A stretch of DNA of 64,000 nucleotides from Salinispira sp. (GTDB lineage Bacteria > Spirochaetota > Spirochaetia > DSM-27196 > Salinispiraceae), in NCBI GenBank assembly GCA_965226555.1, contig CBDDDG010000014.1:64001-128000 (forward strand), read 5' to 3'. The position numbers and the translations under genes are program-made. Positions within the stretch are counted from its first letter, which is position 1; each line of letters opens with the position of its first letter. Under the pieces are notes generated by a model that saw only the letters and a list, made by a program, of their open reading frames with translations, was not told where the DNA came from and made no database searches. Positions 377-41,540 of this stretch are shown here, piece after piece.

Positions 377-2556
377 ATGATGTTTAATCTTTTTAATCCA
401 CTACGAAAGTTATGGGGGGGGGGACGTCCTCTGTATTGATTATAATGAGCGTGGTTCTCGTTGCCGTGCTTGCCGGATGTCCGGGGCCAGATCCTGTTCC
501 GGGAGGTGATCCTGATCCTGTCACTGTTCCTGCCGCGCCGGCTGCTCCCACCCTCAATGTGGGGAACGCCGCACTGACTGTTACATGGGCAGCGCCCGAT
601 AACGGCGGCAGCGAAATTACCGAGTACCATGTGCAGCACAAAGAAAGTACCGCAGACTGGCCAGCGGACGGCACAACCAATACCGCCACTATCGGCGGTA
701 CTGTAACAAGCCACACCATTACCGAACTCAACAACACGACCAGTTACGATGTGCGGGTACGCGCGGTCAATGCGCAGGGCGCGGGGAACTGGTCGACATC
801 TGCCGCTGCAACACCCAGCGCATCCCATCCTCCAGCGCCGAATATGCCCACCCTTGTTGCGGGGAAAGGGAAGCTAACTGTTACCTGGGAAATGCCGACT
901 ATTGCCGCCGGTGCCAGCGCCATTACCACGTACCATGTGCAGCACAAACTAAGCACCGCAGACTGGCCAACGGACGACTCAACGGACACCGCCACTATTA
1001 ATGACGGCACTGCTGCACGCCACATCATTTCCGGGCTGATAGGCGGCAGTTCGTACGATGTACGGGTGCGCGCAGAAAATGAGGATACATTGCTTGGCGC
1101 ATGGTCGCAGCCTGCCACTGCAACCCCTCTCTCAACTTCCACTGTTCCTGCCGCGCCGACAGCTCCCACCCTCGAAGCAGGGAACGCTTCGCTTACGGTT
1201 ACATGGACAGCGCCCGATGACGGCGGCAGTGCCATTACCGGGTATTACCTTCGCCATAGCGCGGACGGCGGAACCTCATGGACGGAAATGAGCTCCGGTA
1301 TTACCGGCACAAGCCACACCATTACTGGGCTGACAAACGGCGCCAGCTACCACGTACAGGTACGCGCCGCTAACGCTGTGGGCGATGGCGGCTGGTCTGA
1401 ATCCGCAACGGCAACTCCGGCAATAATAATTTCATCGACACAGACTCCCGCGGGTACGGCAGCGACGGTAAACCTTTCGGCTGCCGCTAATGCCATTATT
1501 GCGGCTCAGAGCCCAACTGTTGCTTTGACCACGGTTGAACCGGGCACTCTCTCGGTTAGTGGATCAGGAGACATTACGGTAACTGCCGCAACTACGCCCG
1601 ATGGGGTTACCATTCCGACAGTTGATTCGGGTACCGGAGTTGTTTCGGTTACCGCGACGACAACGGCAGGAACATATCTGGTATATGGCACTGAATCTGG
1701 AGGTACAGACATACTGTTTGCCGAATTTTTCTTTGTTACCGTGAGTCCTGCTGATAACGCTGCACTAGACACAGCGGTAAATGCGGGGATATCAAACTGG
1801 GGCAATACTGCCGATCTCAACTACATTGTTACCACGGCAGTAACGAATATGTCCGAGGTGTTTCTTTCCAATAGCACATTCAATGGCGATATTTCCGGCT
1901 GGGATGTCAGTTCGGTAACGAATATGACCCAGATGTTCGCTGGAGCAAGCGTATTCAATGGTGATATCTCGGACTGGGATGTCAGTTCGGTAACGAATAT
2001 GACCCAGACCTTCGCTTTGGCGAGCGCATTCAATGGCGATATTTCGAAATGGGATACTACAGCGGTAACAGTTATGTATGGGATGTTCAATCAAGCAAGC
2101 ACATTCAATGGCGATATCTCGGGCTGGGATACTACAGCGGTAACGAATATGAGCGATATGTTCCAGCAAGCAAGCGTATTTAATCAGAATATCTCAAGCT
2201 GGGATGTCAGTAAGGTAACGATTATGAACCAGATGTTCTATCTCGCAAATAACTTTAATGGCAATATTTCGGGCTGGGATGTCAGTAAGGTAACGAATGT
2301 GGGCAGTATGTTCAATTCAGCAAGCGCATTCAATCAGAATATCTCAAGCTGGGATGTTAGTTCGGTAACGAATATGAATACTATGTTCGCTGGAGCAAGC
2401 GTATTCAATCAAGATCTTGAAAACTGGGCATGGAATAACTCGGTTAACCCTGCGGTTTACTGGAACAATGCTAACTGGAACAATGGCACATATACCGGAG
2501 GCAAAACAAATATGTTTGTGAATTCCGGCGTAACAACAACGCCGTCATGGTATTAG
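377..2556 (+). CDS. FN3(x3) + DUF285/BspA-repeat(x7) surface lipoprotein; natural start out of frame at G10 tract (414-423)
   Basis: AAGGAG then ATG377 gives MMFNLFNPLRKLW (paralogs have NPLRKVQG). Body ORF 412-2556 has lipobox LAGC, FN3 motifs (LTVTW...Y.VRVRAVN..G.G.WS) and FNGDISxWDVSSVTNM repeats, ending PSWY. Confidence 0.85.
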
Positions 2557-2561
2557 GAGCA

Positions 2562-2590
2562 GTTTCATAGCCCGCAGGGGCTATTGAAAC
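2562..2590 (+). repeat. Conserved hairpin just 3' of the lipoprotein genes (GTTTCATAGCCC-gcag-GGGCTATTGAAAC)
   Basis: Near-full copy at 39982-40010; left halves at about 18406, 22199 and 38160. Confidence 0.7.
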
Positions 2591-2760
2591 GTTGCAATTC
2601 AACTCCGGCAGGCATGGGCGCCGACCAGCCCCCGTGCCTGCCTTTTTTCGATTGCTCTCCCATGCGTCCGGGCTGATCAAATAGTAATATCTCAAAATAA
2701 TAGAAACTTTTTGAAAAAATTTCTCATATTCACCGTTCATATTTTACCCGTCTATATGGT

Positions 2761-2925
2761 ATGAGAAAAGATTATATCAATATGGTACACGACAAAAGTT
2801 GGAAATATGTTTTCGGGAGTGCTCAGATATTCCGGGACTTCATATACTCCTACTTCAACAAAGGCCTCGCGCGGAGCATTGTTCCCGGGAGAGCATCGAG
2901 CGTATCAACACAGAGCATACCAGCC
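2761..2925 (+). pseudogene. 5' fragment of an Rpn-family gene (subtype A)
   Basis: MRKDYINMVHDKSWKYVF...RDFIYSYFNK matches the N-terminus at 40189; truncated and joined to the next Rpn leader. Confidence 0.75.
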
Positions 2926-3032: not shown

Positions 3033-4071
3033 ATGAAAAAATCATCCCAGAGCACAGGCCACATCCACGACATAGCCTTCAAGATCGCCTACTACAAGAA
3101 CCCCCCGGCTGATTCCCGACCTGCTGCGGCTGTTCTGTGAAGATACAACGCTTACCAAGCTGGATCTGGACAAAATCCGCATTGAAACCCCCAGCTACAT
3201 TGCAGGAAAAAAGAACCTTCACTGCGATCTCGTTGTCAGTGCCCCCTTCCTGTCAGACCCCGACCGGAAATCTATTTTTATTATTGAGCATAAAAGCTAC
3301 CTGAATAAACATGCTCTCACTCAAATCGATAACTATCAGTATGTCATCAGAAACAGCAATGTGTACAATGAAAGGGATGCTATCTATATACTGCTGCTCT
3401 ACCATGGAAAAAAGGAATGGAACCTCCAGCGCGAATTTTATAGTTCGCATGGAAATGCTGCTTCCGAATCCCTTACCGAAGGCACGGTGGATGTCAGGGT
3501 GAAAGTGTCGTACATTGTGCGCGATCTTTGTAGAATGAAAAAGGAGCAGTTGGCATGGCGTTCCGATGGAAAACGATATACATCGACTGCATTGTGGTAT
3601 ATAATGCGAGATAATAAAATGGATGCTGAGGGGCTGAAAGAAATTGCGCAGCTCCTGAACGGTTTGTCATCACAAGACTTTACTGATCTGGCAGAGAGTG
3701 TGCTAGGTTACCTGAAGGACTTGGGACTGTATGGACAGTTTGAGAAAATTGACAGGGAACTATATTCAGTAGGAGAAAACAGTATGCGGACATATAACAT
3801 AACCAATGCCTTCGTCAGGGAAGGTATTGCGAAGGGCCGGATTGAGGGTCTTGAGCAGGGTATCACAAAGGGCCGGGCTGAGGGCATTGAGAAAGGTATT
3901 CTGAAAGGAATGGAGAAAGGTATTCTGAAAGGTCGCTCGGAGGGGCATATTGAGGAGCGGAGAAAAAACGCTCGCAGTATGTTTTTGGAAGGATTGTCGA
4001 CAGAGGCTGTTCAGAGGATTACCGGGCTGAGCGATGAGGAAATGCGGACATTGCGGAACGGATCGCATTAA
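3033..4071 (+). pseudogene. Rpn family PD-(D/E)XK nuclease (subtype B); single +1 frameshift in C6 tract at 3101-3106
   Basis: Removing one C joins MKKSS..HDIAFK to NPRLIPDLLR..HCDLVV..IIEHKSY and on into ORF 3361-4071 with GxxEG repeats and an HTH-like tail. Confidence 0.8.
3784..4071 (+). CDS. Intragenic small Rpn C-terminal protein (RpnS-like antitoxin), 95 aa
   Basis: In-frame ATG with AGGAG at 3771; EGIAKG/EGLEQG repeats. Confidence 0.65.
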   Translation: MRTYNITNAFVREGIAKGRIEGLEQGITKGRAEGIEKGILKGMEKGILKGRSEGHIEERRKNARSMFLEGLSTEAVQRITGLSDEEMRTLRNGSH

Positions 4072-5560: not shown

Positions 5561-7315
5561 ATGAACAGAGCAATACGGAGAGCGCTCCTGAGTGTCAGCG
5601 ATAAAACACACATTACCGTCCTTGCGTCTTTTCTCGCAGAGCGGGATGTTGAAATTATCGCTACGGGCGGCACCGCAGGGCTCATTGCGGAGCAGGGGCT
5701 GGCGGTTACTCCCGTGGAAGAAATTACCGGCAATCCCGAGGCCTTCGGCGGGAGAATGAAGACCATCAGTTTTCAGATTGAAAGTTCCATACTTTTCCGC
5801 CGTGATCGTCAGTGCGATGTTGATGATGCCGAAAAACTCGGCCTGCGCGCCATTGATCTTGTGGTATGCAATCTCTATCCATTTGAAAAAATTGCCGGCG
5901 GAAATCCTGCCCCCGATTGTGATACGCTTGTTGAGAACATTGATATTGGCGGGCCGACGATGATCCGCGCCGCAGCAAAAAATTACCGCTTTGTAACGGT
6001 ACTCACTGACCCTGCGCAATATGAGCAGTTCATGAAACTCACCGGCAGCGGCACGCTCAATGAAGACATCCGCTTCAATTTTGCCCTTCAGGCTCTGCGC
6101 CTGACCGCCCGCTATGATCAGTTTATTTTCAACACCCTTGCAGCCCGCGCCCGCAATGACGCGCCCCCGCTGCCATTCCCGCTGGCATTTCATGAACTGA
6201 AGAAACTCCGCTATGGGGAAAATCCGCATCAGCGGGCATGGATGGCGCCCTGGGATAATTCGCATTCCCCCATCCGCCTTGCCCGTGCCGAGGTACTTCA
6301 GGGAAAGGAGCTGTCGTATAACAATATGACCGATGCCGACAGCGCATGGAAATGCACTAGCGAACTTCATTATCATTTTCCAGAGCACTTCGCGGTAACG
6401 ATTGTAAAGCACGGGAACCCCTGCGGCGCGGCAGTTGGAAGGAATGCGTTGTCGGTCCTTGAAAAGGCATGGGACTGCGATCCTGTGAGCAGTTTTGGAA
6501 GCATTATCAGCTTTAGTTGGGAAATTGGCAGAGCCGAGGCAGACTGGCTTGCCGAGCGTTTTGTTGAGGTGATTGTTGCGCCAGCATGTTCTCCGGAAGC
6601 GCTGGAGATTTTTGCCCGAAAGAAAAATCTGCGTCTTTTACTCTGTGAAAACAGATCAGCGGACAGCGCCGAGAAGGTTATACGGAGCATGAGCGGTGCC
6701 CTGCTCATCCAGGATGAGGATGAGCCGAGAGATTATGAGTTCAAAAGTGTAACTACGCGTCGGTTTCCGAAGGAGCTGCGCCGGCTTTGCCTCTTCGGCA
6801 TGGTTGTTAACAAGTATCTCAGGAGTAACAGCATCGTGCTGGTGGACAAAATTGCGCCGGTCGACAAAATTGCGCAGGGAAGCACAGCGGCGGCGGAAGG
6901 CATGAATGCCCGGGGAGATGAAGATGCCGGAGGAGATGAGCAGGTCAGGGGAGATGAAGCTGATTTCATGGTCATTGCCGGTGCCGGAATGGGGCAGCCG
7001 AATCGTCTGGATTCCCTGAAGCTCCTTGCAGCCGAACGCGCCGGACTCAGGCAGCGGGCATCAGCAGAACCATCCGCATCAGCAGAACCGATCCCATCAT
7101 CTCCATCGCCCGACAGGAATTCCGGCAGAAGCTCCATGGTACTCATAAGCGATGCATTTTTTCCCTTTCGTGATAGTATAGATATGGCGCATTCCTTTGG
7201 TATACAATGTATCGTTCAGCCCGGGGGAAGCATACGGGATAAAGAAGTTATCAATGCCTGCAACGAGCACAGCATCGCCATGTGTTTCACCTCCGTTCGC
7301 CACTTTCGCCATTAA
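5561..7315 (+). CDS. purH: Bifunctional AICAR transformylase/IMP cyclohydrolase
   Basis: RALLSVSDK, ENIDIGGPTMIRAAAKN, LRYGENPHQ, SDAFFPF, QPGGSIRD, RHFRH. Confidence 0.97.
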   Translation: MNRAIRRALLSVSDKTHITVLASFLAERDVEIIATGGTAGLIAEQGLAVTPVEEITGNPEAFGGRMKTISFQIESSILFRRDRQCDVDDAEKLGLRAIDLVVCNLYPFEKIAGGNPAPDCDTLVENIDIGGPTMIRAAAKNYRFVTVLTDPAQYEQFMKLTGSGTLNEDIRFNFALQALRLTARYDQFIFNTLAARARNDAPPLPFPLAFHELKKLRYGENPHQRAWMAPWDNSHSPIRLARAEVLQGKELSYNNMTDADSAWKCTSELHYHFPEHFAVTIVKHGNPCGAAVGRNALSVLEKAWDCDPVSSFGSIISFSWEIGRAEADWLAERFVEVIVAPACSPEALEIFARKKNLRLLLCENRSADSAEKVIRSMSGALLIQDEDEPRDYEFKSVTTRRFPKELRRLCLFGMVVNKYLRSNSIVLVDKIAPVDKIAQGSTAAAEGMNARGDEDAGGDEQVRGDEADFMVIAGAGMGQPNRLDSLKLLAAERAGLRQRASAEPSASAEPIPSSPSPDRNSGRSSMVLISDAFFPFRDSIDMAHSFGIQCIVQPGGSIRDKEVINACNEHSIAMCFTSVRHFRH

Positions 7316-7318: not shown

Positions 7319-8317
7319 ATGTCTCCGCGCACCGGACTATTCCAACGAGCACGGCGGGCGCTGCTGCCCCGACCACGGTCGCTCCTCGTGAACATCATCA
7401 GCATCTTCCTGCGGCGCCTCATCCGCCTCATACTAACTGTGTTCATTGCCGGTACCGCATTGTTTTTACTGCTTCGGATAATACCCGGCGATCCGGCGCA
7501 GATTATTGTCGGTATGGATCGGGCAGTGGATGAGGCGCAGCTCGCAGACATTCGCGGCCGGCTGGGGCTTAATGAACCCCTCATAAAGCAGTATGGAAAC
7601 TGGCTTTTTGCGGCAATCCGTCTCGATTTTGGCACTTCATGGCAAAAAGCGCTTCCTGTTGGTCAACTTCTGGTCGAACGCTTGAGAATCACCCTGCTCC
7701 TGGCACTTGTTTCCATGGGTATCGCAGTTCTCATTGCGTTGCCTGCGGGCGTTGTGAGCGCTGTTCGGCAGGATGATCGTATCGATCATGTCATAATGGG
7801 AACATCTCACATTGTACTTGCCATTCCCGGATTCTGGCTCGGCATTATGCTTCTGCTTATGTTTTCCGTTGTAATCCCGATATTCCCCCTTTACGGATCA
7901 TTAAGTCTCCGGCATTTTATTCTTCCCGCCATTACCCTAGGTTTCGGCAGCGCAGCCTTCCTGAGCCGCCTAGTGCGGACTGCCATTCTCCGTGAGTTGG
8001 ACAGGGACTATGTTTTCTTCTTCACGCAGCTCGGCCTGCCCCGATCACGGGTCATTTGGCGCCATGTGCTTCCCAATGCACTTATTCCCATTGCCATTCC
8101 GGCAGGCATTCAATTCGGCTATCTGCTCGGAGGCGCAATTATCATTGAACAGATTTTTAGTATGGGCGGAACAGGCAGGCTTATTCTGCATGCCATTCAG
8201 ACACGGGATTTTCCCCTCATTCAGGGAACTGTTATTTTTCTTGCGGCGATTTTCTCGCTGGTCAATTTTGCTGCCGACATCTTTGTAACCCTCGCTGATC
8301 CTGAGAAGAGAATATGA
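7319..8317 (+). CDS. Peptide/nickel ABC transporter permease (OppB/DppB-like; true start may be slightly downstream)
   Basis: PGDPA, LGLNEP..QY..W, HVLPNALIP, RDFPLIQG. Confidence 0.92.
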   Translation: MSPRTGLFQRARRALLPRPRSLLVNIISIFLRRLIRLILTVFIAGTALFLLLRIIPGDPAQIIVGMDRAVDEAQLADIRGRLGLNEPLIKQYGNWLFAAIRLDFGTSWQKALPVGQLLVERLRITLLLALVSMGIAVLIALPAGVVSAVRQDDRIDHVIMGTSHIVLAIPGFWLGIMLLLMFSVVIPIFPLYGSLSLRHFILPAITLGFGSAAFLSRLVRTAILRELDRDYVFFFTQLGLPRSRVIWRHVLPNALIPIAIPAGIQFGYLLGGAIIIEQIFSMGGTGRLILHAIQTRDFPLIQGTVIFLAAIFSLVNFAADIFVTLADPEKRI

Positions 8318-9360
8318 ACAAAATCAATTTCACAAACATACGGATCACCCATATCACGGCAGGCGGCGTTGTGGAAATTCTTCACAACATTGATATTGCG
8401 CTCTTTCCCGGGAAAGTACTTGCTGTGCTCGGTGAAAGCGGGGCGGGGAAGAGCTTTCTTGCGCGATCCTTATGCGCCCTCGCCGGGCGGAATGACTTCA
8501 TTCCTTCGGGCTTTTTTCTCAATGGACAGGTTACCCGCACAGATATATTTCCGGCAATGATCTTTCAGAATGTAAAGACCTGTCTCAATCCCTCCCTACG
8601 CGTCGGCTCGCATCTGAAAGAAATTCTCCGTTACCGCCAGCCGCCGCCAGCCTTTGCATCTCCAGAAAACCTCCTTGAACTTGTGAACCTTCCCCCGGGA
8701 AGGAGCTTTCAGCAGCAGTATCCTCATGAGCTTTCAGGCGGCATGCAGCAGCGGCTTGCCGTAGCCTGCGCGATAGCGGCTGATGCCGACATTCTCATTG
8801 CCGATGAAGCCCTCACCGCGCTGGACAGGGAAACAGCCCGTAATGTTTTGTCGGTGTTCGGCACTATTGCCCGGGAACTGCATAAGGCTGTCGTGTTGAT
8901 TACACATAACCTGCGAATTCTGCAGGAATGCGCGGATCGGGTTGCGGTTATGTACAGCGGATATCTGATGGAGGAGGGGAGAGCGGATATATTTCTGAAG
9001 GAACCCCGGCATCCCTATAGCCGCGCCCTCATGGAAAGCCGCCCGTCCGGGCAGCAAAAAGGACGGTTGCTCAATGAAATTGAGGGTGACATTTCTCCCG
9101 CAGGGCAGTCATTCGCCGGCTGTCCCTTCGCCCCCCGCTGCCAATATCAGCAAGAAGACTGCCGTACCCGCCTTCCCCCCATGCGTTTCAATGTCGATGC
9201 AGCCGCGAGCGCGAGCGCTGATACTGATGTTGACGCAGCCGCTGATACAGCCGCCAAGGCTGACGCGGGTTCCCGCTACCGCTGCTTTCACCCCCTTCCT
9301 GCTGCCCGCCTTCATCCGCTTTCCGTTTCCGGGGATCGGATCGGGGTCGGTCGTGAGTGA
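8314..9360 (+). CDS. Peptide ABC transporter ATPase (OppD-like)
   Basis: GESGAGKS, LSGGMQQR, HPYSRAL, GCPFAPRC. Confidence 0.93.
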   Translation: MNKINFTNIRITHITAGGVVEILHNIDIALFPGKVLAVLGESGAGKSFLARSLCALAGRNDFIPSGFFLNGQVTRTDIFPAMIFQNVKTCLNPSLRVGSHLKEILRYRQPPPAFASPENLLELVNLPPGRSFQQQYPHELSGGMQQRLAVACAIAADADILIADEALTALDRETARNVLSVFGTIARELHKAVVLITHNLRILQECADRVAVMYSGYLMEEGRADIFLKEPRHPYSRALMESRPSGQQKGRLLNEIEGDISPAGQSFAGCPFAPRCQYQQEDCRTRLPPMRFNVDAAASASADTDVDAAADTAAKADAGSRYRCFHPLPAARLHPLSVSGDRIGVGRE

Positions 9361-9361: not shown

Positions 9362-10108
9362 ATGATGGATGGGAAGATAAGTCGGGTTCCCGTGCTCTGT
9401 CTGGAAAAGGTGTATAAGTCCTATTCAAGTTCCGGATTCGGCGGAATTGCTTCACAGTCCGTAGAGGTACTCAATAATTTTTCTCTCAACCTGTATCAGG
9501 GAGAAACGCTGGTTCTTCTGGGGAAATCCGGCCTCGGGAAGAGTACTGTTGCGCGTTGTATTCTCCGCTTGGAGGATATTCAGGCGGGGAAAATTGTCTC
9601 TGCCTGGGGAATGATTGTAAACAAAGGAGAATCCGGAAGGGGCTGGGCAAAAAAATGGGCAGCTCAGGAAACAATGCCCCCGCAGGAATTGTACCGGCGC
9701 GTGCAGCTGGTTCCCCAATCCACGGGGAACAGCCTGAATCCATTCATGACGCTTGAGCAGAACATTACCCGTGTTATGAGCCAGAACCCGGGTACGCGGA
9801 GTCTGGAGGAGGGGCTTGCGCTCAGCGGCTTGGACACTTCCCTGCTCGGACGCCGCCCGGTACAGCTCAGCGGGGGGCAGCGGCAGCGTTTTCTGCTGCT
9901 CAGGGCGCTGATCATGAACCCCCGAATTATTATTTTCGATGAACCCGTGTCCAGCCTCGATTCTTCTATTCAGGCCCGAATTCTCAATACCCTGCGCCGC
10001 CTGAAAGAGGAGCAGAATCTGTCATATCTTTTTATTACCCACAACACCGATGTCGCAGAATACATCGGCGACCGCATCATCAATATGGAAACACTGTATC
10101 AGGATTGA
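9362..10108 (+). CDS. Peptide ABC transporter ATPase (OppF-like)
   Basis: GKSGLGKS, LSGGQRQR, DEPVSSLD; ATG directly after the upstream stop. Confidence 0.9.
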   Translation: MMDGKISRVPVLCLEKVYKSYSSSGFGGIASQSVEVLNNFSLNLYQGETLVLLGKSGLGKSTVARCILRLEDIQAGKIVSAWGMIVNKGESGRGWAKKWAAQETMPPQELYRRVQLVPQSTGNSLNPFMTLEQNITRVMSQNPGTRSLEEGLALSGLDTSLLGRRPVQLSGGQRQRFLLLRALIMNPRIIIFDEPVSSLDSSIQARILNTLRRLKEEQNLSYLFITHNTDVAEYIGDRIINMETLYQD

Positions 10109-10158
10109 TTGCCCACTCAGTGGAATGTTTTTTGCTCCTGATGTATGCTGAAACATCT

Positions 10159-11070
10159 ATGAATGTACAATACGATTTTTTGGAGAATAGCGTTTTTCCG
10201 TTACTTGTTATGGAAAAATCTGAATATGCGGGGAATCAATGTGTATTTCGTAATGGTACTGCCGGGGTATGGCTGTATCAATCGAATTGTCTGGAATTTA
10301 TGGACGCATTACTGAAGAAATATCCCGAGGGTGTGTTTAGCATGATTTTTGCTGATCCCCCGTATTTTTTATCGAACGGCGGAATAAGTTGCCATGCGGG
10401 TAAAATGGTTAAGGTGGATAAGGGCGATTGGGATAAATCGCAGGGTCCTGTACTGAATCATGAATTTAATGTAAGTTGGCTATCGCTATGTCAAAAATTG
10501 CTTAAGGAGAATGGGACAATGTGGGTATCGGGCACCTCTCATGTGATTCATTCAGTGGGTTATGCCATGCAGCAATTAGGAATGAAGTTGCTCAACGATA
10601 TAACATGGGAAAAACCCAATCCTCCCCCGAATCTTTCCTGCAGATACTTTACCCATTCCACCGAAACCATTATCTGGGCAGCAAAAAATGAGAAGACGAA
10701 ACATATTTTCCATTATCAGAAAATGCGGAAGGAAAATGGCGGTAAGCAGATGAAAACGGTTTGGAACATACGACCTCCCGCGAAGAGTGAAAAGGAATTC
10801 GGGAAGCACCCTACACAAAAACCGCTGTTGTTGTTGGAGAGAATAATTGAAGCAAGCACAGATGAAGGAGACCTCATTTTTGATCCTTTCGCAGGCAGCA
10901 GTACAACGGGTGTTGCTGCTATCCGCCGCAACAGAAAATTTGTCGGCTGTGAACTGGAGCATGAGTTTATTGCTATTTCGAAAGAACGATTACATGCCGG
11001 TCTGAAGAGCTCCGATCTGGAACGCTCCAGTCTGAAAAGCGTGCCGAAAAAGATGGTTTCTGAAAGATGA
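10159..11070 (+). CDS. N6/N4 DNA methyltransferase, beta class (DpnA-like); start uncertain
   Basis: FADPPYFLSNGG..VDKGDWD, HPTQKP, DPFAGSSTT. Confidence 0.92.
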   Translation: MNVQYDFLENSVFPLLVMEKSEYAGNQCVFRNGTAGVWLYQSNCLEFMDALLKKYPEGVFSMIFADPPYFLSNGGISCHAGKMVKVDKGDWDKSQGPVLNHEFNVSWLSLCQKLLKENGTMWVSGTSHVIHSVGYAMQQLGMKLLNDITWEKPNPPPNLSCRYFTHSTETIIWAAKNEKTKHIFHYQKMRKENGGKQMKTVWNIRPPAKSEKEFGKHPTQKPLLLLERIIEASTDEGDLIFDPFAGSSTTGVAAIRRNRKFVGCELEHEFIAISKERLHAGLKSSDLERSSLKSVPKKMVSER

Positions 11071-11603
11071 AGGAAGGCGGGCAGGGCGGCGGAAGAACCA
11101 TTACGGGTTTACAGTTTGAAAACAAGGTCGATGTTCGTACCTTACTCGAAGGTATACCCAATTATCAAGTTGATTCACGCGCTGATAATGCGGGCAGCGA
11201 TATTTATTATTCCGGTAAACTCGTGGCAAGGTGTTTTAAGAAACACGATTTTTACCAATTCTTGAGTGAAAAAAGAATCGATTGGAAAAATTATCTCTCG
11301 AAAAAATTATTACCGGACGATGCTCTGCTTGTAATTGTTCGTGAGACATTGTTTATTATTGAGGTCAAATACCAACAGGTTGCCGGTTCTGTTGATGAAA
11401 AATTGCAAACCTGTGATTTTAAGCGTAAGCAATATGTCAAATTAGTTTCCTCGCTGGGGTTAAAAGTTGAATATGTCTATGTACTAAGCGAATGGTTCAA
11501 AAAGCCGGAATATAAGGATGTTTTGGATTACATTCATAGCGTAAACTGTCATTATAAATTTAATGAACTACCCTTGGCATGGCTTGGCTTGCCGACACAG
11601 TAG
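11067..11603 (+). CDS. Putative type II restriction endonuclease (PD-(D/E)XK)
   Basis: LLPDD...IIEVKYQ motif; overlaps the MTase stop (ATGA). Confidence 0.75.
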   Translation: MKEGGQGGGRTITGLQFENKVDVRTLLEGIPNYQVDSRADNAGSDIYYSGKLVARCFKKHDFYQFLSEKRIDWKNYLSKKLLPDDALLVIVRETLFIIEVKYQQVAGSVDEKLQTCDFKRKQYVKLVSSLGLKVEYVYVLSEWFKKPEYKDVLDYIHSVNCHYKFNELPLAWLGLPTQ

Positions 11604-12097
11604 CTCGCTGCATAGGTTTTCCTCCCTCAATGATCATCCTGTCTACGGGACGATGTATTACTTTACTTTCCCTGATAAAGGTATCAATAATCTCAAATAG
11701 ACGGTGTAATAACCACATCCCATTCCCGACCCGAAAAAAATTCACACATTTTGCAAAACTTTCGTTCAGGAGGATTGTATGATCGATTTCAAAGAAAAAC
11801 CCGCCCCCGTTCCCTACGACCAAGGATACCGATCCCTGCTGTTCCAACCCGCAATAATGCTCCAATTTCTGCAACGCTTTGTCGGAGGCACATGGACAAA
11901 GACATGCCCCTCCGCATGTCGGAGTACACAAATCTGCTCTACCGGAACATTCACCGCACCGGCGAAATTCCCGATGACTGCGAGGTGGTATTTCTTCCCA
12001 TTGTGTTCTATAATGGAACGCGAAAATGGAAGGTGCCCGGGAACGTCAGAGAGCAGAACACGCGGGAATTCCCGCAGTATCTTGCCCCTTTTCCTTA

Positions 12098-12224
12098 ACA
12101 AACTTTTGCCTTGGAAAATTGTGCAAGCACAATTTCCAGTAGCAAAACTTTCTATATCTTGAGAGAATCAAATATATAGATGGGAGAATCCTTATTGGAA
12201 AATTTTGCGGAGCAAAATTTTCGG
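12098..12224. mobile_element. Composite palindromic miniature element (MITE/REP-like) flanked by TA direct repeats
   Basis: Absent from the paralogous site (CCTTACGATCTT at about 21369); near-identical element at 41029-41155 and a shorter one at 40353-40452. Confidence 0.8.
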
Positions 12225-12388
12225 TATGATCTTATTAGCGAGAGCGATTATTCTGCGGAGCAGCTGCAGCAGCGGGGAAGAATGTTTGCGGCTGTTATGT
12301 ACCTTGATCTGTACTCGAAAAATCTGCTGAATACGGATTGGGACATTCAGAAAGAACAAAAGAACCGAGAGGTAAGGAGGTAGCAAAA

Positions 12389-12625
12389 ATGTTCAGAATG
12401 AATGCGGAAACATTCAAAGCGCGCATTGCGGAAATGGGTCGGCAGGAAGGACTTCAGACAGGATTGCAAACAGGTCGACAGGAAGGATTGCAGACAGGTC
12501 GTGAAGAAGGCATTCGAGAAACGGCTCGCAGTATGTTTTCCAAAGGATTTTCAGCCCATGACATTCAGGATGTTACCGGGCTGAGCGATGAGGAAATGCG
12601 GACAGTGCGGAACGGATCGCATTAA
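12389..12625 (+). CDS. Orphan RpnS-like small protein, 78 aa
   Basis: AAGGAGG then ATG; MFRMNAETF..GRQEGLQT repeats..GLSDEEMRTVRNGSH. Confidence 0.7.
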   Translation: MFRMNAETFKARIAEMGRQEGLQTGLQTGRQEGLQTGREEGIRETARSMFSKGFSAHDIQDVTGLSDEEMRTVRNGSH

Positions 12626-15111: not shown

Positions 15112-16638
15112 TTATATGGATGTGTTGAGAAGTTTCACAAAATAATGCATGCGCTTATATTCTGCAAGCATACGGGACTTAAGCGGAAATTCTGCCGTCT
15201 GAATTAACTCAGTCCAGTTCGTAATATAGTTTTTTGTGTGTTTTTGACAATCTTCTATAAAATATCTGAATGCCCGCCCGAAGATCACGGAACCCTTTGT
15301 TGTTGCCTGAATTATGGATAGGGCATTCGCATCTATTTTTTCCATTAATATTTGAAGGGCATGATGACTTGATATATCGTTAAGCACAATCCTGCCAAGC
15401 ATATCTTTAAAATTACGTCCGATATCACTGTCTTCATGTAATGAATTGTCGAATTTTTCCAGCCGATCTGAAATTTCGCTGAGTTGAAAATAGGGATCAG
15501 AAAGCTGCTGCGACATTGATCTGATAGTCCATTTTCCGCGAATGAGTATGAAATTTACTAATTCCTGAAGATCCTTATGGTAATAATGAGTAAAAAAGGC
15601 ATGTATGTAATTGAGAATCTGCGTATAGTGAAATTTACCGATCAATGTATTCACTCGTCCATTGGTCTGGCTATTATAATTATGGAGCTCTTCGGCAGGA
15701 ATGCCGTTAAAGATTTCCATGCATAATGTCTTTATTTCACTCATTTTTCTTTCACGGCGCATGTTCTCAATGCTCTGCTTGGCACGCTGTTTAATTGTAC
15801 TCAGATGTTTTTCTGCCATCCGGGTCTTGTATGTACGGAGAGACGGTGTCCAGTCAGGATTGCGATCCAGATATTGAATAATTATGGGTATGATGTTTGC
15901 ATTGGCAACCTTCCTGACCATAGCCATGAGTTGTTTCCATGCAGGCCGGTTAATTATTTCCATTCCCTTGTACGCGGATAAAACATCAAACACTTTCGTC
16001 CAGTCCGCATCAAAATCCAATATCAACAGAACTTCCAGAAAATCTTTGAGTTCGGTATTCACATAATTCCCGGAGATCGTTTTGAACAGGGGAGTATAGC
16101 TGCGGGGATTATTCAGTAACTGAAAATCAAACTTCTTCAGCAGAAAATAATAATCGAAGGCTATAAAATTTATAAACATGAGAATTTGCGAATAGGTATG
16201 ATCAATTAATTGTATTGTTTTTTTATCGAAAGAATGCATTGCCTCATAGAGTTTACTTTCAATTTCTTCAACAGAATCTTTCTGATCTATGTTTTTTTCG
16301 GCAGGATCATTTTTGGCGGTATCATTACTGCTAAACAATGCCAGTATTTTGGCATGTTCGGTATCCATGAATGATTCAATACAAATTGTCTTCAAAGCTG
16401 TGCTGCTTTTGGCGTTGGGCAAAAGACCAGCGGTCGTCATGGTTACTTTATAAATATCGAAAAAGAACTTTGCAAGCCCGGGAAGAGCAAGGTTTCCCTG
16501 AACGCGATAGAATTTGTATCGGGAGCGGTTAATTTCCCGCTCAAGAAGTTTAATAGCCCGCCTCTTTTTTCTGTCAGCACTTGATAAATTAACGATATCC
16601 ATGAACCAAGTAAAGATATTCCCGATTTTTTTCGCCAT
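15112..16638 (-). CDS. Spirochaete conserved protein (DUF5312-like)
   Basis: 508-aa helical ORF; FDYYFLLKKFD motif; family call from memory. Confidence 0.65.
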   Translation of the reverse strand: MAKKIGNIFTWFMDIVNLSSADRKKRRAIKLLEREINRSRYKFYRVQGNLALPGLAKFFFDIYKVTMTTAGLLPNAKSSTALKTICIESFMDTEHAKILALFSSNDTAKNDPAEKNIDQKDSVEEIESKLYEAMHSFDKKTIQLIDHTYSQILMFINFIAFDYYFLLKKFDFQLLNNPRSYTPLFKTISGNYVNTELKDFLEVLLILDFDADWTKVFDVLSAYKGMEIINRPAWKQLMAMVRKVANANIIPIIIQYLDRNPDWTPSLRTYKTRMAEKHLSTIKQRAKQSIENMRRERKMSEIKTLCMEIFNGIPAEELHNYNSQTNGRVNTLIGKFHYTQILNYIHAFFTHYYHKDLQELVNFILIRGKWTIRSMSQQLSDPYFQLSEISDRLEKFDNSLHEDSDIGRNFKDMLGRIVLNDISSHHALQILMEKIDANALSIIQATTKGSVIFGRAFRYFIEDCQKHTKNYITNWTELIQTAEFPLKSRMLAEYKRMHYFVKLLNTSI

Positions 16639-34678: not shown

Positions 34679-35812
34679 CTAAGCCGCCCATTTTCCCTGT
34701 TTCTGCAATTCCAAAATCTTCGGTACCCGTTTCAAATTATACGCAATAGCAGACAACAGATGCTGCGTATGCGCTTTTGTTATTCCGACATAGCGGGTTC
34801 TCCCCCCGCCAAACCATTGGTGCATTCCTCCGAATGTGCGTTCTATTTTGTACCGTCCGCGCTGTATCTCTTTGTTCCTCAGTTTCTGCTCCGCGGTCAA
34901 TTGCTTCTTCTTCTCACCCTTCTTCGCTCTGGCTACCTTCCACATAATGCCGTCTTTCAGCTTTCTCTTCTTCAGCGCCGCTCGGTTCTTCGTGCTTGTA
35001 TATCCTTTGTCCGCCTGCACTTCTACGTTCTCATCCAATTGCCCCTTATCGAGTAGCGTTTCAAACACCGTACTGTCATGGACATTCGCCGGGGCTGGTC
35101 GGAGGCTGCGCCTCCTGCTCGCCCATGCGTCCGGGGTGGTCTCGACCGCTACCATAAGCCCATTGTCATCGGCAAGACAATGCTTCTTCGCTCCAAAATG
35201 AAATTCCCCATTCTTTTTCGTCCACCTCATATCGGTATCTACTCTGTCCGCAAACTTCTCCGGTTCCCGCTCTAAGGATTTATTATCCGATTGAGCGCAT
35301 TCATCACTGTCTGTGCGATCAACGATCCCGCGGGGTTTTCTCGGACTTCTGGTAATGCTCGCATCAACTTTAACCGCTTTCTTAATCATAATCCCCCGCG
35401 TTTCAAGCTGTCGGTTTATTTCATTAAGCAGTCGGTCAAAGATTCCCGCTTTCGTCATGGCTGTGCGAAAACGGCTGAGAACACTGTGATCCGGCACATC
35501 ATCTTCCACAATAAGACCGCAGAAATTCGATGCTCCCATGCTGTCATTCACCATATCTTCCACACCATAATCGCTGAGATCATTCCACATTCCCAATAGA
35601 AGCATTTTGAACAGCAGCAGGCCAGGGTAGGCAGCCCTGCCGACCGCGCTGCTTCCTCGGGTATCGTGTTCTGTAATAATTTCCTCAATGGGCTTCCAGT
35701 CGATAATCTGGTCAATTTTCCGATAGAAGGTGTTTTTCCGTGTACGTCTTTCCATACTGTCTGCGACAAATGACATAGTGTGCTCCTGAGATTTGATCAT
35801 GGTAAGGATCAT
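34679..35812 (-). CDS. IS5-family DDE transposase with a 14-aa in-frame insertion
   Basis: GRAAYP, PDHSVLSRFR, VDAS, FG.KKH, ADKGY, RYKIERTFG. Confidence 0.93.
   Translation of the reverse strand: MILTMIKSQEHTMSFVADSMERRTRKNTFYRKIDQIIDWKPIEEIITEHDTRGSSAVGRAAYPGLLLFKMLLLGMWNDLSDYGVEDMVNDSMGASNFCGLIVEDDVPDHSVLSRFRTAMTKAGIFDRLLNEINRQLETRGIMIKKAVKVDASITRSPRKPRGIVDRTDSDECAQSDNKSLEREPEKFADRVDTDMRWTKKNGEFHFGAKKHCLADDNGLMVAVETTPDAWASRRRSLRPAPANVHDSTVFETLLDKGQLDENVEVQADKGYTSTKNRAALKKRKLKDGIMWKVARAKKGEKKKQLTAEQKLRNKEIQRGRYKIERTFGGMHQWFGGGRTRYVGITKAHTQHLLSAIAYNLKRVPKILELQKQGKWAA
35089..35136. repeat. GC-rich miniature hairpin element with CCGGGG direct repeats
   Basis: CTGGTC-GGAGGC-tgc-GCCTCC-TGCTCGCCCATGCGT; relatives at about 2605-2672, 4081-4105, 40040-40068 and 41218-41252. 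Confidence 0.75.
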
Positions 35813-35960: not shown

Positions 35961-36086
35961 GAAAGTTTTGCAAAATGCAAAACTTTCTATAAAATAGGAG
36001 AATGCTAAGCACAAAGAAAGCATTCCAGATCGGAAACTTTTGCTACTGGAAATTGTGCAAGCACAATTTTCCAATGCAAAAGTTTC
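35961..36086. repeat. Composite palindromic element type 2 (palindrome + about 45-bp spacer + 54-bp palindrome)
   Basis: Same spacer (TAAAATAGGAGAATGCTAAGCACAAAGAAAGCATT) at 40614-40660. Confidence 0.8.
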
Positions 36087-36209
36087 TATTTGATATTTCT
36101 GATATTCCTGATATTGTGTTATACTTGGTAAGGAAGGGTTCTGCGCGTATCCGCAACAAAACATAAGCGGATTCTGTCCGACCCATCTTTTATAAAAAGG
36201 GGTATTAAA

Positions 36210-38154
36210 ATGATATGTAATTGTAATCCACTACGGAAAGTACAGGGAACTTTTCCTGTTTTTGTTGTCATGAGCGTGGTTCTCATCGCGTTACTTGCCG
36301 GATGTCCAATGCCGGAACCGGAACCCAATATGGGGGGGGGGGGGGGGTGATTCGACCCCGCCAGCCCAGATGGCTGCCCCAAGCCTTGAAGCGGGGAATA
36401 CGCAACTAACTGTTAACTGGACTCCGCCGACCGATACTGGCGGCAGCGACATTACCGCGTATGAACTTCGCCATAGCGATGACGGCGGGATCAGCTGGTC
36501 GGATATTATCGAAATCCCCGCGCCAGCCACAGAGACCATCATCACGAACCTGACAAACGGCACCGAATACGTCGTGCAGGTGCGCGCAGGGAACAGCGAT
36601 GGGCAAGGCGACTGGTCGGAATCGAGCGCAGAAGCAACCCCTATTACCGTTCCCACGAAGCCGAATAATTTTACGCTCGCAGCGGACGATATGCAAATTA
36701 CCGCAACATGGGCTGCGCCGACCGATACTGGCGGCAGTGCCATTACCCGCTATGAACGGCAACATCGCGAAGTTGGAGCAAGCGCGTGGGAAAATCCCGT
36801 TTCTATAGCTGCGGATGCAAACCCTCTGGAGTCCGTCATCACATCCCTGACAAACGGCACCGAGTACGAGGTGCGGGTCTACGCTGTCAATGAGCAGGGA
36901 AATGGAAACCCAGCGACTGACACCGCAACCCCTATTGGGCCTCCTGACGCGCCAACTGCTCTCACGCTCACAGCCGGAGACACCGAACTTGAGGGAGCAT
37001 GGACAGCGCCCAATGACAACGGCAGCCCCATTCTTCGCTATGAACTGCAATATCGCGAAGTTACCGACCCGGAAGGAAGTTGGCTGGATGTGACTACCGC
37101 TTCCGACATTACTGCCGCGAGCCGCACCATTACCGGGCTGACAAACGGCACCCCCTACCACGTACGGGTGCGCGCCGTCAACGCGGTGGGTAATGGCGGC
37201 TGGTCTGCGCCTGCAACGAGAAGACTGCTGCCTTCTGCGACACAGGTTCCCTTTGGTACGGCAGCCTCCGTCATTCTTTCGGCTGCTATTGACACCCAAA
37301 TTGCCGATGAGAGCCTCACCGTTACTGTGGCTCCGGCTACTACCCCAACTACGCCCGCAGATGTTACCTCCCCGACAGTTGACTCAAGTACCGGAGTTAT
37401 TACCGTTGCCGCAACGACAACTGCCGGAACATATGTGGTATCCGGCGCAACCGGAGGAGAAAACACGTTTACCGAAAAGTTTTATGTTACCGTGAGTCCT
37501 GCTGATAACGCTGCACTGGACGCCGCGGTAACTGCGGGAATAACAACCTGGGGCAATACTGCCGATCTCAACTACATTATTACCACGGCAATAACGGACA
37601 TGTCCGAGGTGTTCAAGGAGAAAAGAGAATTCAATGGCGACATTTCACTCTGGAATACTACAGCGGTAACAGATATGAGCCATATGTTCGATAAAGCAGA
37701 CGCATTCAATGGCGATATCTCTGGCTGGGATGTCAGCTCGGTAACGGATATGAGCAATATGTTCACGGACACAGACGCATTCAATGGCAATCTTAATGGA
37801 TGGAATGTCAGCTCGGTAACGGATATGAACAGTATGTTCAGTACCTCAGTATTCCATGGCGATATCTCGGGCTGGGATGCCAGCTCGGTAACAGATATGA
37901 GCCTTATGTTCTTTGGTGCAGGCCAATTCAATGGCGATATTTCCGGCTGGGATGTTAGTTCGGTAACGACTATGAGCTTTATGTTCTATGCTGCAAACGC
38001 ATTTACCGGCGATCTTGAGGAGTGGAAAGATCATTGGACGCCCGAAACTGGCAACAAGCTCAATGCTTCTGGCAAATATACCGGAACCAAAACAGATATG
38101 TTTACGGATTCCGGTGTGAACACCGAGAATGGGAATGTGCCGTCATGGTATTAG
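36210..38154 (+). CDS. FN3(x3) + DUF285 repeat(x5) lipoprotein; OFF frame at G16 tract (36332-36347)
   Basis: ATG36210 MICNCNPLRK..LLAGCPMPEPEPNMGGGGG then TGA; body continues in another frame; G15 or G18 restores it. Confidence 0.88.
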
Positions 38155-38326: not shown

Positions 38327-39982
38327 ATGATATGTAATTGTAATCCACTACGGAAAGTACAGGGAACTTTTCCTGTATGTGTTGCAATAAGCGTGGTTCT
38401 CATCGCGTTACTTGCTGCATGTCCAATGCCGGAACCGGAACCGGAACCCAATATGGGAGGGGGTAATGTAAGCCCGCCAGCCCAGATGGCTGCCCCAAGC
38501 CTTGAAGCGGGGAATACGCAACTAAGGGCTACTTGGACTCCGCCGACCGATACTGGCAGCAGCGAAATTACCGCGTACCATGTGCAGCACAGAACAAGCG
38601 CCGCTAGCACGTGGTCAACGACTGATACAGATAACATCGCCACTATTACTCCCCCTGACGCAAGCTACACCATTACCGGGCTGACAAACGGTACCTCCTA
38701 CGATGTACGGGTGCGCGCTGTCAATGCTATCGGCACTGGAGGCTGGTCTGAATCCGCAACGGAAATGCCGACAATAATTTTATCGACACAGACTCCCGCG
38801 GGTACGGCAGCGACTGTAAGCCTTTCGGCTGATATCGATACCATTATTGCCGCTCAGAATCCAACCGTTTCATTGACCACCGTGGAACCGGGCACTCTCG
38901 CAATTAGTGCCTCAGGAGTCATTACGATCACCCCCGCAACTGCGCCCGCAGGGGTTACCGTTCCGACAGTTGATGCGGGTACCGGAGTTGTTACGGTTAC
39001 CACGAGTACAACGGCAGGAACATATCTGGTATACGGCACTGAATCCGGAGGCGCAAATATACTCTTTGCCGAATTTTTCTCTGTTACCGTGAGTCCTGCT
39101 GATAACACTGAACTGCAAACAGCGGTAAATACGGGAATTCAACTCTGGGGCGATACTGCCGATCTCAACTACATTATTACCACGGCAGTAACGAATATGA
39201 CCGAGGTGTTTAGTAGCGTATTCAATGGCGATATCTCACGCTGGAATGTCAGCTCGGTAACGAATATGTTCTATATGTTCAAGAGCGCAAGCGCATTCAA
39301 TGGCGATATCTCGGACTGGGATGTTAGCTCGGTAACGAGTATGTTCGGTATGTTCAATGAAGCACATGCATTCAATCAGAATATCTCCAGCTGGGATGTC
39401 AGCTCGGTAACGGATATGTCCTATATGTTCAGGGAGGCACGCGCATTCAATAGCGATATCTCCGGCTGGAATGTCAGCAAGGTAATGAATATGGCAGTTA
39501 TGTTCAATGAAGCACGCGCATTCAATGGCGATATCTCCAAATGGAAAACTGGCGCGGTAACGAGTATGACCTCTATGTTCAATAGTGCAAGCGCATTCAA
39601 TCAGAATATCTCCAGCTGGGATGTCAGCTCGGTAACGACTATGAACCATATGTTCGATAACGCAAGCGCATTCAATGGCGATATCTCGGAATGGAATGTC
39701 AGCAAGGTAACGTCTATGTCCTATATGTTCAGGGCTGCAAGCGCATTCAATGGCGATATCTCGGAATGGAATGTCAGCAAGGTAACGTCTATGTCCTATA
39801 TGTTCAGGGCTGCAAGCGCATTCAATCAAGATCTTGAGGACTGGAAAGATCATTGGTCGCCCGAAACTGGCAACAAGCTCAATGCTTCTGGCAAATATAC
39901 CGGAAACACAACAGATATGTTTGTGAATTCCGGTGTGGGCACTGGAATGGGACAGACAGCGTTTCCGTCATGGTATCAGTAG
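38327..39982 (+). CDS. FN3(x1) + DUF285 repeat(x8) lipoprotein, intact tandem paralog
   Basis: Same upstream region and signal (LLAAC); G-run interrupted (ATG GGA GGG GGT); last two repeats identical. Confidence 0.9.
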   Translation: MICNCNPLRKVQGTFPVCVAISVVLIALLAACPMPEPEPEPNMGGGNVSPPAQMAAPSLEAGNTQLRATWTPPTDTGSSEITAYHVQHRTSAASTWSTTDTDNIATITPPDASYTITGLTNGTSYDVRVRAVNAIGTGGWSESATEMPTIILSTQTPAGTAATVSLSADIDTIIAAQNPTVSLTTVEPGTLAISASGVITITPATAPAGVTVPTVDAGTGVVTVTTSTTAGTYLVYGTESGGANILFAEFFSVTVSPADNTELQTAVNTGIQLWGDTADLNYIITTAVTNMTEVFSSVFNGDISRWNVSSVTNMFYMFKSASAFNGDISDWDVSSVTSMFGMFNEAHAFNQNISSWDVSSVTDMSYMFREARAFNSDISGWNVSKVMNMAVMFNEARAFNGDISKWKTGAVTSMTSMFNSASAFNQNISSWDVSSVTTMNHMFDNASAFNGDISEWNVSKVTSMSYMFRAASAFNGDISEWNVSKVTSMSYMFRAASAFNQDLEDWKDHWSPETGNKLNASGKYTGNTTDMFVNSGVGTGMGQTAFPSWYQ

Positions 39983-40188
39983 TTTCATAGCCCGCATCGG
40001 CTATTGAAAAGTTACTATTCAACTCAGGCAGGAGCGGGGGTGGTCGGCGCTGCGCGCCATGCGGCGGGATCAGGTCAATAGAAACTTTTCCAATGCAAAA
40101 CTTTGTAATATCTCAAAATAATAGAAACTTTTTGAAAAAAATTTCTCATTTTGTCATTCATCATTCATATTTTACCCGTCTATATAGT

Positions 40189-41540
40189 ATGAGCGGAAAA
40201 TATATAGGAATGGTACACGACCAAAGTTGGAAATATGCTTTCGAAAATCCCCAGATATTCAGGGATTTCATATACTCATATTTCAACAAGGACCTCGCGC
40301 GGAGCATCGTTCCCGGGAGTATGCTGAGCATCAACCCTGAATTTATCCACAACCAAAGTTTTGCCTGAGGCAAAACTTTCTATACCTTGAGAGAATCAAG
40401 AATATAGATGAGAGAAAGCTCATTGGAAAATTTTGCAGAGCAAAATTTTCTGAGGCGAACTCAGGCATTCCATCTCCGATGTCATTTACAAAACTACGTG
40501 CCGTTTCAAAGATAGCGCGCGGAAACTGAAACCGCTTGATGTCTACTTCATCACCAAAGTTTTGCCACAACAAAGTTTTGCCTGAGGCAAAACTTTGTTG
40601 TGGCAAAACTTTCTAAAAATAGGAGAATGCTAAGCACAAAGAAAGCATTTCGAATCTGAAACTTTTGCTACTGGAAATTGCGCACGCGCAATTTTCCAAT
40701 GCAAAAGTTTTGTATTGAGTTTCAGTCGACAGTGGATAACAACATGCCCGGGAGAATCTACACATACGCCCAGCACTTATCCGAACGCATTTCCTCATCG
40801 GGGATTGAGGAAAGTGACTACCGTATAATCACCCTTGTGATCTACACCTGCTCTGGAGCGCCAATGACAAATTCTGACCCCCGCAAAATAGATTTTTCAT
40901 CATATCTTTACTTAGGCATTTGTATATCGAAAATCTTGGAACAATAGAAGAATACACAGAAGAAACAATCGCCATCCTCAACAATGTGGTACAGAATGAT
41001 ATTCCCGAAGAGAAAGATGTATTATATGACAAAGTTTTGCCTTGGAAAATTGCGCGTGCGCAATTTCCAGTAGCAAAACTTTCTATACCTGGAGAGAATC
41101 AAGAATATAGATGAGAGAACCCTCATTGGAAAATTGTGCAGAGCACAATTTTCTGTGAATGGATAATAAAGAGGTTTGATGGTAAGATAACTAGGGATGA
41201 AACAAAGAAACTATTTGCTGGTCGCGCTCCGCGCTGCTCGCCATGCAGCCGGCAGTAAAATCCTGATGAGGCAAAAACTATGTTGGTAGATCTTTTAGAT
41301 AAGCCATGGCGGGCAGGACTTGAGCAGGGACTTGAGCAGGGACTTGAGCAAGGGCGTGCTGAGCTCCAGCGTGAGCATGATCGAACCCAACGTGAGCAGG
41401 TACTCAAAATGCTTAAGGAGGGTCTATCGATGGACATTATTCATAAGATAACCGAGCTCAACGAGGATGAAATTCGAGCATTTCAGAAAAACGCCCGGAA
41501 AAACGGTAGTGAAAATAGCAGGGAAAACGGTAAAAAGTAA
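40189..41540 (+). pseudogene. Rpn nuclease (subtype A) interrupted by four miniature elements
   Basis: Pieces HDQSWKYAF / SDVIYK..VYFI / IEFQSTVDNNMPGRIYTY / DVLY-EWIIK separated by insertions at 40353-40452, 40553-40713, 41029-41155 and about 41218-41252. Confidence 0.85.
41280..41540 (+). CDS. Orphan RpnS-like small protein, 86 aa
   Basis: GAGG then ATG; GLEQ x3; MLKEGLS.DII.KITEL..DEI. Confidence 0.7.
   Translation: MLVDLLDKPWRAGLEQGLEQGLEQGRAELQREHDRTQREQVLKMLKEGLSMDIIHKITELNEDEIRAFQKNARKNGSENSRENGKK

Follow-up and report, generated by a model that had tools for sequence, protein, structure and literature searches.

Why should the same succession of genes, a surface lipoprotein followed by a gene of the Rpn nuclease family, recur three times within 64,000 nucleotides of a spirochete genome, and do the two genes travel together? 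The stretch in question, called here the window, is C14:64001-128000 of the 26-contig, 2.98-Mb assembly of Salinispira sp. (completeness 93.5%, contamination estimate 6.67%). A preliminary description of it proposed that lipoproteins built of FN3 and DUF285 domains move or recombine with Rpn as one unit, producing a repertoire of switchable, shuffled adhesins. We find that the pairing is real, genome-wide and, within what was searched, lineage-specific, and that both partners recombine among dispersed copies; movement as a unit is not borne out. The system is neither a transposon nor a classic expression-site system. On balance we favour, with some reserve, a phase-variable surface repertoire shuffled by gene conversion, in which Rpn is a selfish toxin-antitoxin passenger occupying an inherited slot.

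At all three loci the gene order is the one first described (Table 1), and the inventory of three stands, although a divergent Rpn gene at the left edge and a relic at 11.8 kb had been overlooked. All four window lipoproteins (4/4) have a lipobox, their repeats match PF03382 and TIGR02167 above cut-off, and the counts of FN3 domains (3/2/3/1, by Pfam) and repeats (7/3/5/8) agree with those given before, as do the disruptions of genes 1 and 3 at poly-G tracts of 10 and 16 residues and the BrnT relic and IS1182 of the middle locus. The sequence GTTTCATAGCCCG has five exact occurrences and one with a single mismatch (chance expectation 0.09). The conserved hairpin holds at locus 1, where it folds far better than shuffled sequence (z -6.9) and is followed by a terminator-like stem with its T-run. 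After gene 2 it is reduced to its 5' arm (z +0.9), and the stretch behind gene 4 folds like its shuffles (z -0.3). The leader is where it was placed (an 18-mer at 2684, 20504 and 40105; chance expectation 0), yet it is no neutral spacer: it consists of the promoter-side stretch and initial codons of an Rpn family, F4. The silent tail of a fifth allele exists, yet amounts to merely ~27 codons (~80 bp) that open a 434-bp direct repeat, whose ~97% identical copies enclose IS1182 and Rpn. Rpn is present at each locus, though intact at none (0/3), owing to frameshifts at the first two and palindromic insertions at the third. Promoter and terminator scans of locus 1 gave matches at chance level only.

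Genome-wide, DUF285 blocks number 109 and FN3 blocks 126. The 240 Rpn loci fall into seven families; at least half of the core is covered in 158 of them, and in 82 the core is open. In the block search 2 of 6 query slices were out of frame, and a separate count gave the same DUF285 total. Together the DUF285 and Rpn families occupy ~13% of the genome. The preliminary description had left adjacency to be judged against a permutation null. A same-strand Rpn start lies within 1.5 kb downstream of 58/109 DUF285 blocks, the other three arrangements numbering 1, 3 and 6, and 300 circular shifts gave a mean of 5.6 and a maximum of 14. Likewise, 57 of the 185 core-gene gaps longer than 1.5 kb hold both families, 19 and 28 a single one, and 81 neither (Fisher p=4e-11). 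Among 129 Rpn clusters, 63 stand behind a DUF285 gene, 8 behind an FN3-only gene, 12 are divergent, 45 stand alone, with lipoproteins absent from the nearest 3 kb, and the remaining one has a lipoprotein near it in another arrangement; Rpn divergent from a lipoprotein promoter, as at window 1-65, recurs at 9-12 further loci.

Among 40 relatives, DUF285 matches were found in 5 (2-14 each) and PF04754 matches in 20 (1-7 each); in a phylum sample of 400 genomes DUF285 occurs in 45, with at most 81 first-look candidates vs 218 in this genome. In G229, a genome of another genus that has both families, Rpn was within 3 kb of 0/6 DUF285 clusters, read by eye. Protein scans of genome, metagenome and viral contigs returned no pairing (one unrelated repeat protein among the genome contigs), and no description of one was found in the open-access literature; the main text of PMC12478362, which deals with Salinispira-related spirochetes of sponges, mentions no transposase, lipoprotein, fibronectin or BspA. 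The gene content marks the organism as a spirochete, probably a host-associated one, and the closest homologs outside the genome carry the source label Salinispira sp. As no more than a hint of the pairing elsewhere, one lipoprotein (P0101) and one Rpn protein (P0148) from ENA are encoded on equally long contigs (10436 bp).

Lineage expansion of DUF285/PARCEL proteins and their proposed intragenomic shuffling have been described before (PMC2996958). The lipoproteins studied here share with those BspA-like proteins (TIGR02167) the 25-aa repeats in variable number, the lipoprotein anchor, the lineage-specific expansion and the proposed shuffling; they differ in the fusion of 1-10 FN3 domains to the repeats, in their ~100 dispersed copies, in poly-G switches and in the coupling to Rpn, which the available part of PMC2996958 does not mention. 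Their domain content would suit adhesins. Of 107 DUF285 frames, 100 are at least 380 aa long and dispersed, short orphan tails number only a handful, and a single expression locus with promoterless cassettes was not seen among them.

Runs of at least eight G fall in lipoprotein 5' zones in 30/79 cases (expected 0.76%). Of 34 tracts in signal-peptide regions, 6-21 G long, 25 leave the gene out of frame, and near-identical paralogs differ in tract length (G8, G9, G10, G19). Homopolymer error is an unlikely cause, because core genes, whose open frames contain 92 G/C runs of at least seven, are rarely split (5 frameshift-like cases in 880). To judge from their sequence, the tracts are real contingency-type sites, in line with the switchable alleles proposed at first, and about one third of the lipoproteins would be switched on and off by slippage. 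Comparable systems include the poly-G tracts of Campylobacter and Helicobacter, Borrelia vls, Treponema tprK and the Mycoplasma lipoprotein families. With such systems this one has in common the G tracts at the 5' end of coding sequence, about a third of them in frame, and the exchange of segments between paralogs; it differs in that every gene is equipped with a start and terminator of its own and trailed by a nuclease module, with no single expression site or silent cassette array.

The Rpn proteins match PF04754 (Transposase_31; cut-off 21) with 67.5 bits for family F1 and 36 bits for F0, the TIGR01784 matches of F0 and F1 being sub-threshold (22.9 and 35.1 vs a cut-off of 52.1). Judging by dN/dS (0.28, 0.16, 0.34), purifying selection appears to act on their cores, whose near-invariant D and EHQ/EHK motifs may represent acidic residues of the PD-(D/E)XK type. 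A solved-structure search with an F1 protein returned a low-complexity match only, and PADLOC had no match for Rpn. A ribosome-binding site (RBS) of the AAGGAGGT type precedes an internal ATG in 31/31 F1 copies, and the most frequent F0 and F2 contexts have GGAG-type sites. The RpnS-like tails measure mostly 71-115 aa in F0 and 70-142 aa in F1, nearly all in four-residue steps, and are distinct in 30/31 F0 and 31/31 F1 copies. On these sequence features, the genes appear to share the RpnL/RpnS toxin-antitoxin anatomy (PMC10400941, PMC5350276), namely the PF04754 core, nested RBS and ATG, variable 4-aa repeats and orphan RpnS-like frames, along with tandem arrays, variable ends and lack of terminal repeats. 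By analogy with E. coli, each would encode a nuclease toxin and a nested antitoxin, with specificity set through the 4-aa repeat. The differences from what those sources describe are of scale, with 240 loci, 82 of them open in the core, spread over 3 Mb against 26 copies in the high example, one Bacillus genome, and of setting, since here the genes are dispersed and polarised behind surface lipoproteins instead of lying in defence islands, and families are replaced in place.

The slot itself is marked by F4, an older and mostly dead family (70 loci, open cores in 2) in whose place younger families now supply the core. A 5' piece of F4 lies directly upstream of 78/107 near-full F0/F1 genes, with several preferred break points, and 3' pieces, often with a small nested frame, lie behind some of these genes. 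Most lipoprotein genes finish with the same conserved block, a hairpin and then a terminator-like stem; four F3 genes read straight into DUF285 coding sequence, and FN3 lipoproteins with other C-terminal domains have orphan DUF285 tails or the shared 3' block behind them. The variable junctions around the slot argue for replacement and displacement, not for site-specific insertion. Orphan C-terminal tails downstream of an incoming module are also a feature of Rhs/CDI polymorphic toxins, and addiction modules beside accessory genes are one of superintegron toxin-antitoxin cassettes; here, in contrast, the variable protein is a presumed adhesin, and neither an integrase nor a fixed site of the attC kind turned up. 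We also noticed FN3 lipoproteins that combine quite different C-termini with a common N-terminal style, some of them followed by the shared block or an orphan tail and Rpn; examples of such interchangeable tips are at C10:79295, C18:68831, C22:196019, C10:94069 and C2:6536, among others.

Recombination detection on the paralogs, another check suggested in the preliminary description, pointed to exchange among them. In 77 lipoproteins the similarities of neighbouring segments correlate (0.63, 0.59), and the correlation is about zero across the repeat boundary; a PHI-type test gave 0/300 permutations (p=0.003, the floor), so that these genes are mosaics. For F0 and F1 the same test is at its floor too (p=0.002). 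Linkage decays to background within ~40 bp in F0 (32 copies) and 80-160 bp in F1 (31 copies), and all four gametes are present at ~90% of distant F0/F1 site pairs vs 16-21% (maximum 34%) in clonal simulations; family F2 is tree-like. Four gametes at a distance are found also in dispersed copies of two insertion sequence (IS) families, 18 and 9 copies, which from the look of their sequences we take to be IS481-like and ISAs1-like, and in a six-copy unnamed family, the IS fraction being 0.56-0.68. Ectopic recombination between repeats thus appears general in this genome, despite the presence of mutS and mutL (recA was found as well); because IS copies recombine too, the pattern does not establish Rpn as a recombination engine. 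Heavy ectopic gene conversion among the dispersed islands is nonetheless supported.

A second record of exchange comes from a miniature element, palindromic and modular, whose 526 blocks add up to 46 kb. It is strongly enriched within Rpn loci, whose 149 kb contain 81 copies, against 14 in the core frames (1066 kb) and a single one in the lipoprotein frames (196 kb). Its flanks suggest a 2-bp duplication, mostly TA, as in Correia-type elements; no partner transposase was identified. Genome-wide, gaps carrying it are not less syntenic with a relative, G006. Four sites in F0 are interrupted at the same base in 14, 5, 18 and 5 of 65 copies, each by an insertion of its own peculiar length, and all four combinations are seen for 6/6 pairs of sites; reassortment of these insertions means that broken alleles spread too. 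A single origin of each insertion followed by spread is the simplest reading. Hairpin loops within F0 and F1 insertions occur in both orientations at one site in different copies, micro-inversions typical of template switching. The commonest F0 insertion site is a few bases behind a promoter-like site (3577-3605 in locus 1), ~180 nt ahead of the nested start, the scan that gave this site not rising above chance. A run of a separate study, X6, contains low-depth short pieces similar to core genes and to the lipoprotein and Rpn families.

G006 also shows that the islands are not the product of one old segmental duplication. In this comparison (2.8 of 3.87 Mb covered, 882 orthologs) the flanking genes are adjacent in the relative at 19/108 island gaps, and several of the relative's gaps are near 100 bp (73, 76, 97 and 117 bp among them), so that the islands are separate insertions at many sites. 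We considered the islands as rearrangement breakpoints and rejected the idea: adjacency is kept at 19/108 island gaps vs 19/77 large non-island gaps, without excess.

These results would be accommodated by the following scheme. An ancestral unit of lipoprotein, terminator and F4 Rpn may have reached dozens of intergenic sites, its ends having since eroded; inheritance of the F4 slot would explain the fixed order and strand. Homologous recombination, in the simplest case through RecA, would then swap short tracts between islands, as the mosaic pattern indicates, using the homology blocks that the islands share: FN3 and repeat coding DNA, the 3' hairpin and terminator, the F4 leader and the RpnS tail. 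Such exchange could shuffle lipoprotein segments, yield orphan tails and let F0, F1 and F3 supplant the F4 nuclease core. Live Rpn copies would persist as addictive or antiphage modules, and their nicks may feed recombination in trans; Rpn would not act as a cis-acting transposase of the unit.

Several observations weigh against this passenger scheme. The dynamics of the islands are all inferred from a single assembly, and one with a contamination estimate. Initial spread to new intergenic sites is outside the reach of conversion, and no vehicle was found. Rpn lies downstream of 14/28 FN3 blocks without DUF285, and the pairing extends to family F2, in some cases without the shared 3' block, which suggests repeated origins of the coupling and perhaps selection for it. 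Linkage extends further in the IS copies than in F0/F1; the difference fits age and would equally fit a local engine. Over the flanking 60 bp, carriers of the F0 insertions are no more alike than non-carriers, so that repeated site-specific insertion may instead account for the recurrent palindromes. Finally, the outside homologs of Rpn-linked lipoproteins are the more diverged.

This last point bears on the strongest competitor, which we consider possible though clearly less probable: that the Rpn behind each of ~65 switchable FN3-DUF285 lipoproteins is a domesticated, self-neutralising nuclease that nicks its locus and primes short-tract template switching between paralogs, so that linked genes diversify faster. 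Rpn overexpression in E. coli brings RecA-independent recombination, 3'-OH ends and shorter exchange tracts (PMC5350276), the free 3'-OH and template switching would offer a mechanism, and the very short linkage in F0/F1 would fit. When 26 outside homologs, the top matches of one query, were compared with this genome's paralogs (one contig-end case dropped), the match was Rpn-unlinked for 5/6 homologs at least 80% identical and Rpn-linked for 16/19 below 80% (p=0.0055), with the threshold set after the data were seen; the seven NCBI homologs checked have adjoining accessions and hence probably stem from one assembly. The nearest relatives of linked genes inside the genome are also closer, both in the tail (p=0.02) and in the last FN3 (p=0.049). 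On the other hand, linked and unlinked genes do not differ in segment discordance (p=0.12), poly-G presence is unrelated to linkage (p=0.28), and only 33/65 linked genes have an open Rpn core. The engine would, moreover, be a diffusible, non-specific nuclease without known cis preference, in a genome where IS copies recombine as well.

A further idea, which we find rather doubtful, is that the host keeps an addiction module behind the lipoprotein because it prevents deletion of the island by repeat recombination, much as toxin-antitoxin cassettes are viewed in superintegrons. Selection on the cores and the distinctness of tails are what it would lead one to expect, as is the BrnT relic in the equivalent slot of locus 2; repeat number does set toxin-antitoxin specificity in E. 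coli, according to PMC10400941. Half of the linked loci, however, are without an open nuclease, and 45/129 Rpn clusters stand alone. Since several copies have equal tail lengths and broken loci retain RpnS-like frames, cross-neutralisation is likely, and it too counts against this idea.

Transposition of lipoprotein and Rpn together, with the Rpn protein mobilising the cassette, is closest to the original proposal; it now seems improbable and is largely refuted for recent events. Sites empty in G006 and the fixed order and strand agree with it. Against it, inspection by eye of 11 insertion sites revealed no common ends, and Rpn 3' flanks are ragged across 119 ends. Among 100 units there is no non-overlapping pair at least 90% identical from the lipoprotein end into Rpn, nor any two separate genes at least 90% identical over their whole length. 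Lipoprotein similarity does not follow that of the downstream Rpn (Mantel p 0.08-0.97; 9 + 9 pairs, low power), nor are lipoprotein coding segments associated with Rpn family (p>=0.06; 39 pairs, low power); only the intergenic stretch is (p=0.0005). The unit thus lacks the hallmarks of an insertion sequence, that is, defined ends, terminal repeats or target duplication, and recent near-identical copies. Zhong et al. (PMC10400941) likewise report variable ends for rpn genes, and found neither terminal repeats nor target duplications nor any autonomous transposition.

Still less credible is a gathering of both families and IS elements in permissive accessory or defence sites. Of 87 copies of eight other repeated families (seven of them IS-like), 43 lie within 1.5 kb of an island, and in other genomes defence genes are found clustered with rpn (PMC10400941), but around the same 100 genes these other repeats are without polarity (3, 6, 5, 10), whereas Rpn is strongly polarised (55, 1, 2, 9). 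The least probable account, that errors in assembling or polishing a metagenome genome full of repeats produced the mosaics and frameshifts, could draw on the single assembly with its contamination estimate and on window repeat alleles that are in some cases absent from short-read contigs of a sample holding the strain, but it is opposed by unique flanks with 0 differences over kilobases from short-read contigs, by a summed depth in Rpn and lipoprotein bins tens of times the unique depth (which is not a copy number), by the rarity of frameshifts in core genes, by the reassortment of 100-130-bp insertions and by mosaicism in independently assembled homologs.

The mobility of rpn genes and the purpose of their recombination activity are presented as unsolved in both founding papers (PMC10400941, PMC5350276). 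With a copy number ~nine times the literature's high example of 26, this genome is a natural test of how a toxin family spreads, the more so as shared palindromic insertions, nested F4 relics and repeat-length keys record that spread, and as in-place replacement and conversion of rpn alleles, dead ones included, can be followed across distant loci. Strictly polarised linkage to a phase-variable surface family that is among the larger ones in bacteria is an unusual architecture even if Rpn is a passenger; if it were an engine, this would be a new route to antigenic or surface variation and a natural role for Rpn recombination activity.

Table 1. Features of the three lipoprotein-Rpn loci and related elements, in window coordinates
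Feature	Position	Strand	Remarks
Divergent Rpn, family F0	1-65	-	5' end, runs out of window; open frame C14:62971-64098
Lipoprotein 1	377-2556	+	Lipobox, 3 FN3, family-specific middle domain, 7 DUF285/PARCEL repeats; out of frame from RBS-led start
G10 tract	414-423	+	Signal-peptide region of lipoprotein 1; G8 paralog in frame
Conserved 3' block	2562-2648	+	Hairpin 2562-2590; terminator-like stem and T-run 2607-2648
Leader, locus 1	2684-2925	+	F4 upstream region and F4 5' stub, start 2761
Rpn, family F0	3033-4071	+	PF04754 above cut-off; frameshift near 3096
Nested RpnS-like frame	3784-4071	+	Own RBS, 4-aa repeats
Rpn relic, family F1	11779-12625	+	Deletions and palindromic insertion ~12096-12225; no lipoprotein ahead
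Open RpnS-like frame	12389-12625	+	Within the F1 relic at 11.8 kb
Palindromic miniature elements	12096-12225, 16792-16848, 35961-36090, 40352-40452, 40557-40715, 41030-41158		The second is upstream of lipoprotein 2
Lipoprotein 2	16915-18402	+	2 FN3, 3 repeats; in frame
434-bp direct repeat, copy 1	18321-18754	+	Lipoprotein tail, half hairpin, BrnT relic ~18441-18635
IS1182	18755-20479	+	Transposase 18825-20288; ends approximate
Leader, locus 2	20504-20610	+	F4 leader and very short F4 stub
Rpn, family F1	20895-22008	+	Open nuclease core; tail frameshift ~21899; internal RBS and ATG 21663
434-bp direct repeat, copy 2	22115-22548	+	Holds orphan lipoprotein tail (to 22197)
IS5-family transposase	34679-35812	-	Upstream of locus 3
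Lipoprotein 3	36210-38154	+	3 FN3, 5 repeats; out of frame past lipobox
G16 tract	36332-36347	+	Right behind lipobox of lipoprotein 3
Lipoprotein 4	38327-39982	+	1 FN3, 8 repeats; in frame
Leader and Rpn relic, family F4	40105-41540	+	Near full-length, start 40189; palindromic insertions ~40352, 40557, 41030
Open RpnS-like frame	41280-41540	+	In the F4 relic of locus 3

The relic at 11.8 kb is directly preceded by a type II-like methyltransferase and a PD-(D/E)XK gene (10105-11603), and together they form a small defence-island setting without a lipoprotein. Elsewhere in the window, a DNA methylase is joined to a T5orf172/MUG113 domain (60949-62418), and three otherwise ordinary core proteins (5561-7315, 8314-9360 and 25751-27151) have in-frame, low-complexity insertions rich in Ala and Gly. 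In at least 5 family relatives, one and the same gene stands divergent beside the DUF5312 gene (15112-16638 in the window); in this genome that neighbour is on another contig (C19:13761), and a copy of the small palindrome is found at both broken ends.

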